The translations under genes and the position numbers were made by a program. Positions 6,485 through 49,388 of a DNA stretch of 53,765 nucleotides are shown here, piece after piece (positions within the stretch are counted from its first letter, which is position 1; each line of letters begins with the position of its first letter). Source of the stretch: an uncultured Candidatus Saccharibacteria bacterium (GTDB taxonomy: Bacteria > Patescibacteriota > Minisyncoccia > Phycocordibacterales > CAIZLB01); NCBI GenBank assembly GCA_964367655.1, contig CAYIYJ010000001.1, positions 1 through 53,765 on the forward strand, given 5' to 3'. The notes beneath the pieces were generated by a model. It did no database searches and had not been told where the DNA came from. It saw nothing but the letters and a program-made list of their open reading frames with translations.

Positions 6485-7528
6485 TTATTGAAAGGATTGC
6501 GTTAGTTGATACATAGGCACAATAATAGAAATACAGATAATAAGAACCATGAGACCGACACCAACAATGAGAGCTGGTTCAATAAACTTTTGAACTCGAT
6601 CAAGCAAAGTATTCAACTCTTGCTGTATATGTGCATGACACACCAAAAACACCTCAGACAACAAGCCTGTTTGTTCGCCAGATTTAATAATCGATTGCCA
6701 GTCTTTTAACTTTTTATAAATACGTGCATCAAGTAACATCATACCTTCTGCACAAGTTCCACCCTGACCAACGTATGACTCAAGTGCTAAAAAACTACGA
6801 CGTACAGAACTGCTAGATACTGATTTATTGGAAAGAATAATGGATTCAAAAAGAGGTATCTTAGTAGATAAGCATATATACATAATCTGTAACCATTTCT
6901 CTAAATGCCAGTACAGATACACGTCTCGAACATATATAGTTCGATTCAGTATGTATTGTTTTACCCTATTTGAGTATGTTGTATACGTAATATTATTTCT
7001 AAGCCATATATGCATGGCGATAAAAAACATCACAATAATACTATCTACCCACCAAAAACGAATCACATGTTCACTCAACGCAATCAACATCGACGTTGTG
7101 CCAGGTATCGTATCCATACCTTGAAACAACGGAGTAATCTTCGGAACAATAAAAACCAGTATCATTGCAAGTAAACCACCAGATAACAGAAGTACTAGCA
7201 GAGGATATATGAGCAGCGATACAAGTTTTGTTTTCTGAGCAAAACGCATATTGAGAAGTGTACTCAATGTACAGAAGATCTCTTTTAGCATCGAAGTCTT
7301 CTCCCCTATCTCAATAAGAGAAAGTTCTGTATGGGAAAATATATACGGATACTCATTACACACAACCGATAAACGTGTTCCTGTTTGCAACTTCTCATAT
7401 ATATCTTTCGTATACACATCTTCTCCAGCAATAAAAACCGCATCAACTAAAGACTGTCCTGCCTGAAGATAATAAAAAATCTTTTTATACCAAAAAGAAC
7501 GATATTGTGTATGTTTTAAAGTTTTCAT
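6485..7528 (-). CDS. type II secretion / type IV pilus platform protein (GspF/PilC family)
   Basis: 347 aa polytopic membrane protein with two GspF-like repeats. Overlaps the upstream ATPase gene. Confidence 0.8.
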   Translation of the reverse strand: MKTLKHTQYRSFWYKKIFYYLQAGQSLVDAVFIAGEDVYTKDIYEKLQTGTRLSVVCNEYPYIFSHTELSLIEIGEKTSMLKEIFCTLSTLLNMRFAQKTKLVSLLIYPLLVLLLSGGLLAMILVFIVPKITPLFQGMDTIPGTTSMLIALSEHVIRFWWVDSIIVMFFIAMHIWLRNNITYTTYSNRVKQYILNRTIYVRDVYLYWHLEKWLQIMYICLSTKIPLFESIILSNKSVSSSSVRRSFLALESYVGQGGTCAEGMMLLDARIYKKLKDWQSIIKSGEQTGLLSEVFLVCHAHIQQELNTLLDRVQKFIEPALIVGVGLMVLIICISIIVPMYQLTQSFQ

Positions 7529-8646
7529 GAAAAAATATCAAGATTAATTCTTTTAATCTCTTCTTCGGTAGTAACGTGTCGACTATACATCTCACTACAA
7601 GCATCTCGTAACAACACATGTCCCGAATCAACTAGATATCGCTCTATCTCGTATGCAGTCTTTTTTTGATGAATCATATCACGGACCTGAGAATCCACTT
7701 GAACAAGCTCAAACACACCTCTACGTTCTCCATACAGACCAATCGAATAATCAAACACTCTGACAAGTCTTTGACTTAAGATCAAAGATACTGCAGATGA
7801 GAGAAGATATGCTTCTATACCCATATCTATCAATCGAGGAATCACAGAAGCAGCACTTGGTGCATGGATTGTGGTTAAAACAAGATGACCCGTCAAAGCA
7901 GTTTGCACTGCGGCCATCGCAGTTTCCTTATCGCGAATCTCGCCAATCATGATAACGTCAGGATCTTGACGTAAGATACCCCGTAAAGCTTCTTTAAAAC
8001 CAAAACCTTTTTCTACCGAGATAGGAATTTGTCTAATAGTCGGTACAACTGATTCAACAGGATCCTCTATGGTCACAATATTCTTTTCTGTAGATAGCTC
8101 CTCAAACATAGATGTGTTTATATCTATTCCTCGTGCAAGATATCTTAAAGCAGCATATAGCGTACTTGTTTTTCCTGACCCTGTCGGACCAGCAACAATG
8201 ATCAATCCCGATGTTTTACTTAACGAATGTTTAAACTGTACAGCCTGAGAATGAGTCATTCCCAATTCCATAAAACTACTACCTCGCATAGCGTGAGGTC
8301 GTAGTATTCGCATAACACAGTTTTCTCCAAAGAACGTTGGTGCGATCGATACTCGCACATCCAACTTCTCTCCCGTTGACTTTGATACAAAATAGAATCT
8401 CCCATCTTGTGATCGATCGTGTACATCAGAACGTAATGCAGCCAATACTTTAATCTTACCAATACAGAGATCTAACAGATCACTTTCAAAACAGCCACCC
8501 TCATGCATATGACCTGCAATACGGAATCGTACAAATACAGCAGATTCCCTTGGATCAATGTGAATATCTGACGCCGAAAGAGCAACAGCTTTTTCAATAA
8601 GCGATGAAATAAATATGTATATATCTTTTTTCGCAGAAGGATTCAC
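7525..8646 (-). CDS. GspE/PilB-family secretion ATPase (short form)
   Basis: Walker A GPTGSGKTS, the Asp box, and GEIRD ... TGHLVLTTIHA motifs typical of PilB/GspE. Confidence 0.85.
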   Translation of the reverse strand: MNPSAKKDIYIFISSLIEKAVALSASDIHIDPRESAVFVRFRIAGHMHEGGCFESDLLDLCIGKIKVLAALRSDVHDRSQDGRFYFVSKSTGEKLDVRVSIAPTFFGENCVMRILRPHAMRGSSFMELGMTHSQAVQFKHSLSKTSGLIIVAGPTGSGKTSTLYAALRYLARGIDINTSMFEELSTEKNIVTIEDPVESVVPTIRQIPISVEKGFGFKEALRGILRQDPDVIMIGEIRDKETAMAAVQTALTGHLVLTTIHAPSAASVIPRLIDMGIEAYLLSSAVSLILSQRLVRVFDYSIGLYGERRGVFELVQVDSQVRDMIHQKKTAYEIERYLVDSGHVLLRDACSEMYSRHVTTEEEIKRINLDIFS

Positions 8647-42587: not shown

Positions 42588-42718
42588 GCTCTCATACGCT
42601 CTTGTTGGCGGGCCGACTCGTGCTAGAACCGTGGGCGGTTAAGGTCTGTAATGTCCGTTGGGGATATTGTAACATAGCTGACTCGACCCCAATCGGGCGT
42701 GTCAAAAAGTGATACAGG
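42588..42718 (-). repeat. junction repeat, full copy A
   Basis: + strand blocks: ttggcgggccgaCTCGTGCTAGaaccgtgggcggttaag ... gtccgtt ... tcgaccccaatcgggc ... gtcaaaaagtga. Confidence 0.8.
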
Positions 42719-43488: not shown

Positions 43489-44040
43489 TTAACCTAAAAT
43501 ACTCTTCAGATCTAATTCCAGATTTTTGAATAGAATCTTGTTCTTGGCATGTCCTGTAGGGTTAACGGGTGACGGGTGAAAAATTGGAAAAACTTTATAT
43601 GTTTTATTTCCGAACTTAATATTCAAAATTTCTCCCATAACTAAGTTTTGATCAATTATTTTCGATAAAATACTTGTAGTCTGTACGCCTAAAATTATCA
43701 ATAATTCATATTCTTGATCTTTAATTTGTTCTAAAAAAATTGGCCAACATTTTTTACCACAAGATTCAAGCTCTGTTCGTTTTGAAACAAAACACTTTGA
43801 TAGTTCTGTAAATCCACTATTTTCGACAGAAAGACCAAAAGGTTCTAAAAGTTCATTTAACCTCTTTCCTGTTGGAAGTATTTTTCCATCAGGGCGATAA
43901 CAAGCCTTACCAGATAAAATCCAACCATTTGGTGCAGGAGACTCTCCAACAATTAACAACTTTTCTCCTTTTCCCACACCTAGCTGATGAAACTTTTCCA
44001 AAGGAAATTTTTTTATATCGTGACAAACATGATTTTTCAT
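43489..44040 (-). CDS. uracil-DNA glycosylase superfamily protein (family 4/5-like)
   Basis: 183 aa with LLIVGESPAPNGW (motif A-like GE.P.) and FHPSPVNP (motif B HPSP). Confidence 0.6.
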   Translation of the reverse strand: MKNHVCHDIKKFPLEKFHQLGVGKGEKLLIVGESPAPNGWILSGKACYRPDGKILPTGKRLNELLEPFGLSVENSGFTELSKCFVSKRTELESCGKKCWPIFLEQIKDQEYELLIILGVQTTSILSKIIDQNLVMGEILNIKFGNKTYKVFPIFHPSPVNPTGHAKNKILFKNLELDLKSILG

Positions 44041-45890: not shown

Positions 45891-45926
45891 AGCACGAGAC
45901 GACCACCTCTCTCGTGCTAGCTCTAA
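45891..45926 (-). repeat. junction repeat, promoter-proximal part, with a 9-bp hairpin
   Basis: AGCACGAGA-cgaccacctc-TCTCGTGCT (45891-45918), then agctctaa leading into TTGGCGGG. Confidence 0.65.
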
Positions 45927-46077
45927 TTGGCGGGCCGACTCCGACTCGAAGCTTACAGCTTCAGTACACCTTTGCGGTTTGACTCGGACAAACGTCCTCG
46001 CAAACATCGCAAAGCTTTTCGAGTCGGGGAAAAGCTACGCTTTTCCTAACTCTAACATATTGTGGTAACTGCGGGCC
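45927..46077 (-). repeat. 151-bp ORF-less structured unit, copy 1
   Basis: Identical to 49172-49322 apart from 2 mismatches. It is bounded by GGCCCGC at both ends and contains TTCGAGTCGGAGTCGGCCCGCCAA (read on the minus strand). Confidence 0.85.
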
Positions 46078-46189
46078 TATTCGTGCTAGAACCGTGGGTG
46101 GTTAAGACCTGTATAGTCCGTTTCAAGGATTGTAGCATGTCTTAATTGACCCCACTCGTGCGGGTCAAAAAGTGACAAAAGTGACAGTT
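46078..46189 (-). repeat. junction repeat, full copy D (tRNA-like end interrupted by the 151-bp unit)
   Basis: + strand blocks: (gcgggcc)taTTCGTGCTAGaaccgtgggtggttaag ... gtccgtt ... ttgaccccactcgtgcgggtcaaaaagtgacaaaagtgac. Confidence 0.8.
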
Positions 46190-46618
46190 TTAGCTCTTTT
46201 CAAGAAGGCCCTTAATCCCCTTCAAAAACTTCTCACCGTCAGATCTTTTAACTTTGTTTCTCATATCCATCACTTTATCGCGATGACAGCGTCTCAATTC
46301 CTTACCACTACCACAATAACAAGGCCAGTGGCCTTTCACTTTTTTACAAGTGTGATATTCCAGAAATTTTATAATCCCATATAAGTCACTAATACCGAGT
46401 TCTTCCTGATAAAATTCGAGATTACCTTTTATGTTATGACTTCTGGCTTTCATAGTCGGGTTGCCACTTGTTGAATCATAATCAATTTGCCAAACAAAAA
46501 AGCTTTTCACACACGTCTCAATGAATTCAAGAATATTATTTTGAGATGAATAATGCTTATACTCTTCATCTTTCAAGAACAGGCACGCATTTCCGTTCGG
46601 GTAGAAGTGTCTACACAT
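46190..46618 (-). CDS. SEC-C-motif-containing protein
   Basis: 142 aa with HWPCYCGSGKELRRCH, a SEC-C-type metal-binding motif. An in-frame stop lies 9 nt upstream of the ATG. Confidence 0.6.
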   Translation of the reverse strand: MCRHFYPNGNACLFLKDEEYKHYSSQNNILEFIETCVKSFFVWQIDYDSTSGNPTMKARSHNIKGNLEFYQEELGISDLYGIIKFLEYHTCKKVKGHWPCYCGSGKELRRCHRDKVMDMRNKVKRSDGEKFLKGIKGLLEKS

Positions 46619-46895
46619 ACCACCCTATTTCAAACCGTGATCTGAAACATTCTCGATATGTAGATACTGGATTCGGCAGCAGGAAACCTTGATCTCCCGC
46701 ATATTCGCCTATTACCGGGTATCAGCATATCATAATTTATATAAGGGAACACTTATGCAAAGCAACAAAAATAGCCCAAGCACGACATGTGCAAGGGCTG
46801 GAAGTTTTTTAACGCTGTATCTTCCCGAGCGTTTGGCGATAAATCGCCGAAGAGCAAAGTTCAAAGTGACCAAGGAGGTCACAGTGGCAAAGCTC

Positions 46896-47597
46896 TTAGG
46901 GCTTACTTGCGAGAGACAACGCAGGACTGTAGGCACTACGGTCGTAGTCGAGCCAGCTGTAGCTCCAGCCCCACGAACCGCCACCCTGACGATCGAGGTA
47001 CAGGGCACCACGGCGGCCATCGGAGCGCCGCAGAGTGGTACCCAGCAGCTCGAACCAGGTGATACCGAGGGTGTCGAGCCAACGGAGCGTCTTTTGCCCC
47101 TCCTCCTCAAAAAGCGCCTGACCGATGCGAGCATCGGCTTGGATCGCTTTGGCGATGAGGCGGGCGCGCTTTACTTCGCTCGTGACGACTGTTTCCGACC
47201 CTTCGAGTCCTGTCAGGAAGTTTGCTTCTTTGGTCATGCCTCTGAAGTCCACTTCCTTGAGGGCAAGCGATCGCTTGTCCTGTTCCTCGTCACCCTTGAG
47301 ACCGTCACCTTTGGCAGGGCCTTTCCAGATCGTCCAGCCGCTACCCACGAACGTGGAAGGGTTGAATGTTGCGGGAAGGACCAACGGGCCGGTGGGCGGT
47401 TCGACGACAACTTTCACAGGCTCGGGAAGAGCGGGGACCTCATACCCATTGATATGGGCGGTGATCCAAGCGTTGAACTCGGCCGGCGGCAGATCGAGAA
47501 TGAGTTGGGTTTTGTCTTTGTCCCATCCGCTTCGTTCCCCAGCGTTGAGGAAAAGGGCTGCGAATTGGCGATGTTGTTTTTCAGTGGCTTGAGCCAT
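46896..47597 (-). CDS. GC-rich orphan protein, likely horizontally acquired
   Basis: 233 aa from MAQATEKQHRQF; the track ORF extends to 47693. The coding body has ~38 G+C per 60 nt by my counts at 46921-46980 and 47341-47400. The composition is plausible for a protein and is Trp-rich. The hairpin GTGACC-tcct-TGGTCAC follows the stop codon. The overlapping + strand ORF reads as Arg/Ala/Thr-rich low complexity. Confidence 0.55.
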   Translation of the reverse strand: MAQATEKQHRQFAALFLNAGERSGWDKDKTQLILDLPPAEFNAWITAHINGYEVPALPEPVKVVVEPPTGPLVLPATFNPSTFVGSGWTIWKGPAKGDGLKGDEEQDKRSLALKEVDFRGMTKEANFLTGLEGSETVVTSEVKRARLIAKAIQADARIGQALFEEEGQKTLRWLDTLGITWFELLGTTLRRSDGRRGALYLDRQGGGSWGWSYSWLDYDRSAYSPALSLASKP

Positions 47598-47914
47598 TGC
47601 GTAGTCTGGGTTACTAAATCCTTCAAAGTGGTACGTTCCAAGATAGGCTCTTGGAAAATGACGTATCACTCCGAATGTTTTTCGCCTCAGCATTTCACAT
47701 CTTATAAAATAAGATTCAAAATGCTGAAGCGAATTCGCAAGTTATTTCAAGGTACTTTATGCTATATATTATACACCACAAATGCCATATATGTCAATAT
47801 GCGGGTTTTGGGCTAAATTAGCCTGAAAAATAAAGGTATTTTGACGCGACCACACTACGTATTCCCTATTCTGCATAGCTATGCAGGGTTTACAGGTCTG
47901 TCATTAATTAATAT

Positions 47915-49024
47915 ATGCAACAGCTCGGTATAAATGCCCAGATACGGATGGCGGAGATAGTGCCACAAGCAAGAGTGAAGTACTGCCTCTATGCAAGAAA
48001 ATCTACAGAATCGGATGAGAAACAAGCTCTATCAATCGAATCGCAAGTAAAGGAAATGCTGCAGATTGCCGAACGAGATGGTTTGGAAATAATTGATATT
48101 CGAAGAGAATCCCACTCAGCCAAAGATTCAGGCCAACGTCCTGTATATAAAGAATTGTTGGAAGATATACGAAGACAAAGATTCAATGGAATTCTGACTT
48201 GGGCGCCAGACAGACTTTCCAGAAATGCGGGCGATCTTGGATCAGTCGTAGATTTGATGGATCAAGGATTATTATCTGAAATTAGAACCTATGGACAACA
48301 GTTCAGAAATTCACCTAATGAAAAGTTTCTACTAATGATTCTCTGCTCTCAGGCAAAATTAGAGAACGATAATAAGAGCATAAACGTGAAGCGTGGGATG
48401 AGAACTCGTTGCGAAATGGGATTGTGGCCAGGGAGAGCACCGACTGGATATCTGAGTGAAAAGAGGATAGATAGGAAATGTCAGGTATACATAGATCCAG
48501 AGCGAGGCCATATCATCAAGAGCATATTTGAAAAGGTTGCATATGAAAAGTGGACTGGCAGAAAAATAATGCACTGGCTCAAATTCGATCTGAATTTCAG
48601 GACGGCTTGCGGACATAAGCACATGAGTCTGGGTAATATCTACACCCTGCTCGAAAATCACTTCTATTATGGAGTATTTGAATACCCTTCAAAAAGCGGA
48701 AACTGGTACACAGGCAAACATGAACCCCTCATAACAAAAGAATTATTCGAACTAGTGCAATCTCAGATCAAAAGCCAAATCCTTCGCACTGGAGAGCCTA
48801 AAGAGTTCGCGTTCACCAAGCTCATGGCTTGCGGATTATGCGGATCAGGTATCTGTGCAGATGAGAAATTCAAGAAGCTGAAAGACGGATCGGTTAACAG
48901 GCATATCTACTACGCCTGTACCAGAGCAAGAAATCCGGACTGCAAGCGAGAGTACATAAATGAACCCGATTTGATAGAACAATTCATAAGACTCATGGAT
49001 GAGAGTTCATATAAATCATACTAA
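47915..49024 (+). CDS. large serine recombinase, probably C-terminally truncated
   Basis: Resolvase-type catalytic N-terminus (YARKSTESDEKQALSIESQ ... RLSRN), a recombinase domain, and a zinc ribbon (CGLCGSG ... YYACTRARNPDC). It stops ~25 aa after the last Cys. That is where large serine recombinases normally continue with a coiled coil, and all three frames are closed downstream. Confidence 0.8.
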   Translation: MQQLGINAQIRMAEIVPQARVKYCLYARKSTESDEKQALSIESQVKEMLQIAERDGLEIIDIRRESHSAKDSGQRPVYKELLEDIRRQRFNGILTWAPDRLSRNAGDLGSVVDLMDQGLLSEIRTYGQQFRNSPNEKFLLMILCSQAKLENDNKSINVKRGMRTRCEMGLWPGRAPTGYLSEKRIDRKCQVYIDPERGHIIKSIFEKVAYEKWTGRKIMHWLKFDLNFRTACGHKHMSLGNIYTLLENHFYYGVFEYPSKSGNWYTGKHEPLITKELFELVQSQIKSQILRTGEPKEFAFTKLMACGLCGSGICADEKFKKLKDGSVNRHIYYACTRARNPDCKREYINEPDLIEQFIRLMDESSYKSY

Positions 49025-49082: not shown

Positions 49083-49171
49083 TCAGTAACCTTAGGTTCT
49101 AAGCCCGAGTGGGGTCGAAATTCAGACCTTCAAAATATCCTTAAAAACTAGCCTATTCGTGCTAGCACGAG
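49083..49171 (+). repeat. junction-repeat fragment in inverted orientation, with a 14-nt perfect palindrome
   Basis: GCCCGAGTGGGGTCGA (49103-49118) reads on the + strand here, whereas it reads on the minus strand in every other copy. It is followed by cctatTCGTGCTAGCACGAg, with the palindrome at 49157-49170. Confidence 0.7.
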
Positions 49172-49322
49172 TTGGCGGGCCCACTCCGACTCGAAGCTTA
49201 CAGCTTCAGTATACCTTTGCGGTTTGACTCGGACAAACGTCCTCGCAAACATCGCAAAGCTTTTCGAGTCGGGGAAAAGCTACGCTTTTCCTAACTCTAA
49301 CATATTGTGGTAACTGCGGGCC
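49172..49322 (-). repeat. 151-bp ORF-less structured unit, copy 2, abutting tRNA-Trp
   Basis: See copy 1. Its right-hand GCGGGCC (49316-49322) is the 3' acceptor end of the tRNA. Confidence 0.85.
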
Positions 49323-49388
49323 CACTCCGACTCGAACGGAGAATTGCGCGTTTGGAGTGCGATGTTTTACCATTGAAACTATAGGCCC
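49317..49388 (-). tRNA. tRNA-Trp(CCA), with a weak anticodon stem
   Basis: Manual fold, 72 nt: acceptor GGGCCTA/TGGGCCC, D arm GTTT-CAATGGTA-AAAC, anticodon loop CTCCAAA and T arm CTCCG-TTCGAGT-CGGAG. The anticodon stem TCGCA/CGCGC has only 3 Watson-Crick pairs. CCA is not encoded. Confidence 0.65.

Follow-up and report, generated by a model that had tools for sequence, protein, structure and literature searches.

Diversity-generating retroelements (DGRs) are abundant in Patescibacteria, where their reverse transcriptases (RTs) form a separate clade (Roux et al. 2021, PMC8144416; PMC11661182). The cell-encoded DGRs of Patescibacteria/Candidate Phyla Radiation (CPR) genomes correspond to DGR "clade 2" (Roux et al. 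2021, PMC8144416), and the variable region (VR) types of the "CPR set" are largely unclassified (UVR1-6; Wu et al. 2018, PMC5758913). A deviating GC content has been taken as a sign of the recent transfer of a whole DGR (Wu et al. 2018, PMC5758913), and remote DGR targets are known, which metagenome surveys miss (Roux et al. 2021, PMC8144416). Neither a target gene that is GC-rich on its own nor a link between a DGR and a serine recombinase is mentioned in PMC8144416, PMC11661182 or PMC5758913, a comparison that was made without Paul et al. 2017 (Nat Microbiol). Here, we describe a GC-rich gene of 233 codons (46896-47597, minus strand) in a 53,765-nt stretch of contig CAYIYJ010000001.1, hereafter the window, from an uncultured Candidatus Saccharibacteria bacterium whose assembly consists of 21 contigs (631,788 nt, 91% complete). 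We conclude that this gene is probably an orphaned DGR variable-protein gene that was borne by a mobile module and whose host-independent GC content is a property of its family. The feature itself is ordinary in kind; what is unusual is where it sits, namely in a serine-recombinase module that has decayed and that lies in a tRNA-Trp island.

Cassettes in relatives and the copy in the window

A word-index search over 5.8 billion proteins returned 22 close homologues of the 233-aa protein, and a match to the family was found in 20 of 61 related genomes (in what follows, L designates loci or contigs with homologues, G related genomes, P homologue proteins and C contigs of the own genome). Three relatives (L003, L002 and L012) carry a template repeat (TR) about 350 nt downstream of the target gene, two of them with an adjoining Avd gene and one of these also with an RT gene. 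At L003, a 126-nt repeat of the gene's own 3' end (VR 6499-6624, TR 7027-7152) is followed by bAvd and RVT_1 genes, and each of the mismatches between VR and TR (20/20) is located at a template adenine. L002, whose protein shares 76% amino acid identity with that of the window, has a 128-nt VR/TR pair (6570-6697 and 7042-7169) with 23/23 mismatches at template adenines, while at L012 the same is true of 9 of the 11 mismatches and a bAvd fragment then follows. Many related genomes also displayed a second small match, corresponding to the TR, 500-700 nt away from the first one; the RT adjoins the template repeat in G031, and searching with RVT_1 recovered RTs in the relatives G031, G039 and G003. 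Judging from these sequences, and with genomic context as the decisive element, the target family is that of predicted DGR variable proteins. The changes from TR to VR are not even but biased from A to G (16/20 in L003, 18/23 in L002 and 13-15 of 17-19 in the window).

The last ~128 nt of the window gene (46907-47034, minus strand) form a VR that carries the adenine-mutagenesis signature when compared with foreign TRs. Aligned without gaps to the TRs of L012 and L002, it differs from both at 18 sites, 17 of which are an A in both TRs, so that 17 of the 31 A sites are changed versus 1 of the 85 non-A sites (Fisher p 4e-11). The 17 altered adenines all occupy first or second codon positions, in agreement with AAC codons, and comparisons with homologues gave VR changes at codon positions 1/2/3 of 10/9/6, 12/11/2 and 10/13/3. 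The ratio of nonsynonymous to synonymous substitution rates (dN/dS) is 1.1-4.1 in the VR with a dS of 0.06-0.20, against a dN/dS of 0.04-0.27 and a dS of 0.65-4.7 in the rest of the gene; this low dS in the VR indicates that the nucleotides of its scaffold have been kept uniform by a conserved template.

Two further attributes of a DGR target are present in the window, namely an invariant 3' end of the VR resembling an initiation of mutagenic homing (IMH) sequence and a downstream inverted repeat. The IMH-like end (46905-46926, minus strand, 22 nt, TCCTGCGTTGTCTCTCGCAAGT) is near-identical in the window, L002 (one substitution), L012, L005 and L013, and its counterpart in the TR copies diverges at the last bases only. 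Just past the stop codon lies a conserved hairpin (GTGACC-TCCTT-GGTCAC, 46866-46882, minus strand, -9.8 kcal/mol), a candidate DGR target-site hairpin that is kept in L002, L005 and L013 and that has a changed stem in the same place in L003 (GGTC...GACC). We also considered an adenine-specific depletion across the whole gene, as from self-templated mutagenesis, and rejected it, T (0.19) being scarcer than A (0.22) in the coding strand. Only one other contig (L042) encodes an identical protein; it matches the window over 1,898 nt at 100% identity and could stem from the same source.

The window copy stands without the remainder of the cassette. Neither a second VR copy nor a TR was found in the window or in the 632-kb genome (91% complete), six-frame searches of the same assembly with RVT_1 and bAvd gave 0 matches, and tblastn with the RT and Avd of a relative against the genome returned nothing. 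Past the stop codon, collinearity of the window with L002, L012, L003 and L005 extends through the hairpin, a terminator-like stem and the first ~120 nt of a leader. The terminator-like stem-loop followed by a T-run (46767-46799, minus strand, -16.3 kcal/mol; not called by a simple terminator scan) is kept through different sequences in L002, L005, L012, L013 and L003. The structured non-coding leader that separates the target gene from the TR in intact relatives (L002 6783-6927, L012 1650-1797, L003 6765-6914) is represented in the window by its 5' part only (46604-46723, minus strand, delimited by alignment and blastn end points). In the consensus fold of this leader (5 sequences), double changes preserve 12 of 38 pairs; Rfam gave no match to it in the window. 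Homology to the intact cassettes ends at 46604, about 115 nt ahead of where the TR would begin, and the place of the TR, Avd and RT is occupied by a 142-aa open reading frame (ORF) with a SEC-C motif (46190-46618, minus strand, GC 0.366; Pfam SEC-C exactly at the cut-off), whose ATG lies inside the leader remnant and which has no homologue in the related loci. Altogether, the window copy is probably an orphaned DGR target gene in a frozen state, its cassette having been cut inside the leader of the TR.

One may ask whether the gene could instead be a live remote target, whose VR is still rewritten in trans by a TR, Avd and RT that belong either to a co-resident phage or plasmid or to the ~9% of the genome missing from the assembly. 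Such a situation would agree with an intact ORF, with a scaffold under purifying selection and with the conservation of the IMH-like end and downstream hairpin, and, at a completeness of 91%, with the existence of remote targets that metagenome surveys miss (PMC8144416). Yet neither a TR nor an RT or Avd came up in four different searches of 632 kb, there is a visible break in the cassette within the TR leader at 46604, and the neighbouring recombinase is decayed too. The L004/L005 element moreover lost its TR, in L005, at a breakpoint that differs from that of the window, and TR loss therefore recurs. We thus regard a live remote target as distinctly unlikely and an orphaned target gene as the better description of the window copy.

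The comparison of the window with its relatives suggests how the locus may have come about. In intact relatives, the target gene, whose 3' end is formed by a VR of ~128 nt, is preceded by its own promoter and a structured 5' leader and is followed by a hairpin, a terminator, a further structured leader and then the TR, Avd and RT. The RT would copy the TR RNA while misreading its adenines, and the resulting cDNA would then overwrite the VR, recoding some 15 AAC-type codons on what may be the binding face of a lectin-like-looking C-terminal domain. In the genome studied here, only the half with the target gene would have survived, with the cut at 46604 in the leader ahead of the TR, and the adenine-mutagenesis imprint kept by its VR would represent a frozen allele of a ligand-binding protein that was once diversified. 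The gene would have arrived in a module with a large serine recombinase that has since been truncated at its 3' end, and this module would have lodged in the tRNA-Trp island between direct repeats of ~170 nt.

Coding capacity, expression signals and predicted fold

The first-pass annotation of this DNA, made from its letters, had noticed a GC-rich block coinciding with the body of a minus-strand ORF, and it preferred a coding gene over a large structured non-coding RNA (ncRNA). Both the coincidence (stop TAA at 46896-46898, ATG at 47595-47597) and the preference were borne out. Against the four closest homologues and outside the last ~45 codons, the dN/dS was 0.04-0.27 and third-position changes were dominant, with a dS outside the VR of 0.65-4.7. 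A profile search against 1.84 billion representatives recovered 1,492 clusters at E <=0.001, of which 250 at <=1e-30, so that the family comprises at least 1,492 clusters at 50% identity and is without a Pfam model. The 233-aa protein matched no family in Pfam, PHROGs or NCBIfam, Pfam gave nothing meaningful over all 21 members of the alignment, and a profile search against PDB sequences returned chance matches only.

In AT-rich genomes, a GC-rich island is often the mark of a structured RNA, and the block is open on both strands, as the earlier annotation had also correctly seen (ORFs of 265 aa, minus strand, and of 375 aa, plus strand, 46689-47816), which would leave room for a large structured ncRNA or for the plus-strand ORF as the real gene. 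Neither fits the data. Rfam found three tRNAs only over the window and no match at the block, and the substitutions fit the minus-strand coding frame; the structured RNA reading was rejected on this coding-type pattern together with the Rfam result. As for the antisense ORF, the codon-aligned frame in homologues contains between 0 and 6 stops, its product has no match in Pfam, PHROGs or NCBIfam, and it was rejected as a gene for lack of conservation of its frame. It is open because the target gene uses no TTA, CTA or TCA codons and is a by-product of GC-rich codon choice. We therefore assign next to no probability to either alternative: the GC-rich block is coding on the minus strand, and it is not a structured RNA.

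The longer 265-aa reading starts at ATG 47693, within the 3' arm of a conserved leader hairpin, and 47597 is for this reason the likelier start; the close relatives P0004 and P0005 begin at the equivalent position. A sigma-70 promoter (TTGACA-18-TATAAT, 47768-47797, minus strand) agrees with the consensus at 12/12 positions and is also kept in L002, L004, L012 and L013, of which L012 and L013 have no recombinase. Between promoter and gene, the alignment of relatives reveals a conserved 5' leader (47598-47767, minus strand) with an inverted repeat at 47681-47733. This ~160-nt leader, whose hairpin has 25-nt arms, is likewise kept in relatives that lack the recombinase.

An AlphaFold2 model of the 233-aa protein (pLDDT 80) consists of N-terminal helices and a C-terminal beta-rich domain. 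Foldseek gave no match at E <=0.001 against the PDB, and an exhaustive VIA search gave weak matches (best Z 4.2) that were mostly to C-type-lectin-like domains and that included the DGR proteins 2y3c (Z 3.4) and 5ioo (Z 3.0). The modelled fold is consistent with the usual C-type-lectin scaffold of DGR variable proteins, not proof of it. In the ESM Atlas, the same domain occurs mostly in hypothetical proteins of Minisyncoccota. There, the C-terminal domain is once fused to a 745-aa AAA_5 ATPase (Minisyncoccota), a fusion that shows the variable domain to be modular.

Origin of the high GC content

The extent of the compositional anomaly is clear. The counts of 38 G+C per 60 nt at 46921-46980 and at 47341-47400 and of 22 per 60 nt at 43501-43560, which had drawn attention to the block, were reproduced exactly. 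The GC content is 0.587 between 46896 and 47597 and 0.391 in the remainder of the window; it reaches 0.60 at 47001-47500 (500-nt window) versus a window mean of 0.39, and 100-nt windows stay at or above 0.50 from ~46850 to 47600 with a peak of 0.69. In 600-nt windows over all 21 contigs (mean GC 0.3895, sd 0.036), the block is the genome-wide maximum (0.60, z 5.9). About 20 further blocks have a GC of 0.49-0.58, and none attains 0.60. The GC content at third codon positions (GC3) is 0.645 in the target gene versus 0.302 (sd 0.056) in 245 long ORFs of the genome, and the values for codon positions 1/2/3 (0.63/0.48/0.65 in the gene, 0.50/0.37/0.30 in the genome) indicate that amino-acid content alone is insufficient to explain the composition of the gene.

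The first-pass annotation had read this composition as the signature of a recent acquisition from a GC-rich donor, for example the host lineage of an episymbiont. Several observations are in line with such an import: a mobile-looking module at a tRNA, a patchy distribution in the genus, one homologue in a GC-rich Verrucomicrobiales contig and a lean of singleton third-position changes from GC to AT (26, versus 10 in the opposite direction) that resembles amelioration, although parsimony inflates this excess. This lean would fit AT-biased mutation acting against a restoring force as well as slow amelioration.

The composition of the surrounding genes argues otherwise. The deviant GC content is confined to the target coding sequence, since the co-travelling recombinase has a GC of 0.418 and the SEC-C ORF of 0.366, and in complete cassettes the RT and Avd genes are as AT-rich as their hosts (0.33-0.39), the template is at ~0.5 and the target gene is at 0.59-0.60. 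Among 17 loci, the gene GC ranges from 0.44 to 0.60 and the flank GC from 0.29 to 0.58 with no correlation between the two (r = -0.10), and the gene exceeds its flanks in GC at 16 of the 17 loci, the exception being the Verrucomicrobiales contig (0.51 vs 0.58). An AT-rich recombinase, RT and Avd together with this lack of correlation thus leave a GC-rich donor or a host-lineage origin unsupported. Nor is a recent acquisition supported, given a dS of at least 0.65 to the closest relatives, and values from 0.65 to >1.5 among GC-rich copies in AT-rich hosts speak for long residence without amelioration. Synonymous sites are near saturation among copies that all keep a GC3 of 0.60-0.65. In addition, the word-index search of 5.8 billion proteins found no homologue above 76% from a GC-rich host, and the Verrucomicrobiales copy is 45% identical with a GC below that of its host. 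A recent import from a GC-rich donor is hence highly improbable, and the high GC content is a host-independent trait of the target gene family. The A-to-G bias of the TR-to-VR changes raises the GC of the VR and cannot account for the rest of the gene.

The Verrucomicrobiales homologue (L015 6030-8714) follows a Recombinase-domain gene. No template repeat is present there, and a stretch of ~464 nt is duplicated in tandem (6892-7200 and 7357-7663). Being less GC-rich than its host, the gene was likely imported into the Verrucomicrobiales genome.

The ~20 other GC-elevated blocks of the own genome are not DGR target paralogues, none of which was found in this genome. Examples of gene-sized blocks (GC 0.49-0.58) are C4:40901-41700, C10:3501-4900, C7:39501-40800 and C20:2201-3300; several of the ~20 encode secreted-looking proteins, one of them with a PEP-CTERM-like tail. 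Ribosomal RNA or other RNA genes were rejected as their cause, Rfam having found one tRNA in 13 blocks.

A more far-reaching proposal, which we consider unlikely, is that the GC content of the family is actively held at ~0.55-0.60 and that serine-recombinase modules shuttle target genes, with or without their template, from one Patescibacteria genome to another and into a cassette array anchored at tRNA-Trp. If this were true, a GC content held despite free synonymous turnover would suggest a GC-biased process that is specific to the locus and linked to retrohoming, or else selection on composition; a candidate for such a process would be the strong A-to-G bias of TR-to-VR changes combined with biased repair around the integrating cDNA. 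In more practical terms, a lone GC-rich gene in AT-rich ultra-small bacteria is not automatically foreign DNA from a GC-rich donor, and single GC-rich genes may be used as beacons for DGR targets, including orphans that RT-centred surveys miss.

The recombinase module and comparison with known systems

That the gene had been carried in on a recombinase module was another proposal of the first-pass annotation, and the sequences of relatives agree with it: the gene and its recombinase neighbour are collinear with three contigs in other contexts, and direct repeats bracket them at a tRNA-Trp gene. Upstream of and divergent from the target gene lies a large serine recombinase (47915-49024, plus strand, 369 aa, GC 0.418) with the three Pfam domains Resolvase, Recombinase and Zn_ribbon_recom. 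It is 90-92% identical to orthologues of 432-444 aa that are encoded beside homologues in L002, L004 and L005, and it is truncated at its 3' end: homology stops at 49000, and ~81 residues at the end of the orthologues have no counterpart here or elsewhere in the genome. Together, recombinase and target gene share 78-82% nucleotide identity with three metagenome contigs that lie in other contexts, and the outer neighbours differ in L002, L004 and L005. In sister genera, no such recombinase lies close to the intact DGRs of relatives, and the recombinase link is therefore specific to the sub-lineage of the window.

Two direct repeats (left, 45912-46092; right, 49157-49337, from a repeat search) delimit a 3.2-kb module that comprises the recombinase, the target gene and the SEC-C ORF. 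The repeats span 181 nt at 94% identity with a spacing of 3,245 nt, the near-identical stretch measuring ~170 nt, and the right one ends inside the 3' end of the tRNA-Trp(CCA) gene (49316-49388, minus strand; ARAGORN and Rfam) that anchors the island. A core GCGGGCC occurs at five sites (42608, 45930, 46071, 49175 and 49316), whose flanks look like hybrids between a second, pseudo-tRNA-like site and the tRNA-Trp 3' end, with hybrid flanks noted at 45930 and 46071 in the left repeat and at 49175 in the right one; this second site is unsplit in L005 and L007. From their sequence, the direct repeats contain candidate attL/attR junctions.

An 18-nt motif (YTCGKGCTAGAACCGTGG) is found four times, at 42617, 44082, 45231 and 46080, between consecutive minus-strand genes that lie left of the module, against 0.01 copies expected by chance. 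This recurrence suggests an array of cassettes anchored at tRNA-Trp, and the module would therefore be the tRNA-proximal unit of a longer island. In the relatives, the tail of L005 (3229-3252) overlaps the head of L004 (1-24) by exactly 24 nt; the two contigs come from different runs and are identical over 2.7 kb. The recombinase, the target gene, RIO1 and a gene for a 219-aa protein may thus exist there as a ~4.4-kb circle or in a repeat-flanked form. Within the genus of the window, the family gives a weak match at most, in 5 of 17 genomes, and the best matches belong to another genus and another family, making a horizontal arrival of the target gene plausible. The locus would illustrate one route by which DGR cassettes decay and move, in which a target gene loses its template and enzyme and travels with a neighbouring serine recombinase into an island at a tRNA.

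Several points weigh against the interpretation of the block as a module-borne, orphaned DGR variable-protein gene. The lectin-like fold reaches a Z of only 4.2 at best, with no significant Foldseek match and no sequence link through Pfam or the PDB, and no signal peptide or membrane segment was seen in the 233-aa protein, as judged by eye from its sequence. With an assembly that is 91% complete, a TR and RT acting in trans could belong to the unassembled portion or to a phage or plasmid that escaped binning, and the gene, its IMH-like end and its hairpin are all intact, as expected of a live remote target. Finally, serine recombinases neither need nor create long repeats such as those that bracket the module.

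Comparison with three described systems helps to place the locus. As in elements with large serine recombinases of the phage-integrase type, the module has an enzyme of Resolvase, Recombinase and zinc-ribbon architecture, is found in varied genomic contexts and is bracketed by repeats with hybrid-looking flanks. It differs from them in that its enzyme lacks the last ~81 residues and in that repeats of ~170 nt abutting the 3' end of a tRNA are typical of tyrosine-integrase islands instead. The variable proteins TvpA of Treponema denticola (2y3c) and of a Nanoarchaeota (5ioo) likewise have their VR at the extreme C-terminus, in a beta-rich domain that follows helices, but they match the model of the window protein with a Z of only 3.0-3.4 and share no sequence similarity with it.

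The closest parallel is found in the DGRs of Patescibacteria/CPR. Their variable proteins are likewise small, with a C-terminal VR of AAC-derived codons, and the host is here again of this kind, with a 0.63-Mb Paceibacterota-like genome whose ClpB groups with those of Patescibacteria/Paceibacterota; the relatives of the window gene also resemble these systems in their adenine-only TR differences, their Avd and their RVT_1-type RT. The window copy differs from them in having no TR, Avd or RT, in the truncation of its cassette and in its link to a large serine recombinase, and the family differs in that the whole target gene, and not only the IMH and its flanking segments, is GC-rich whatever the GC content of the host.

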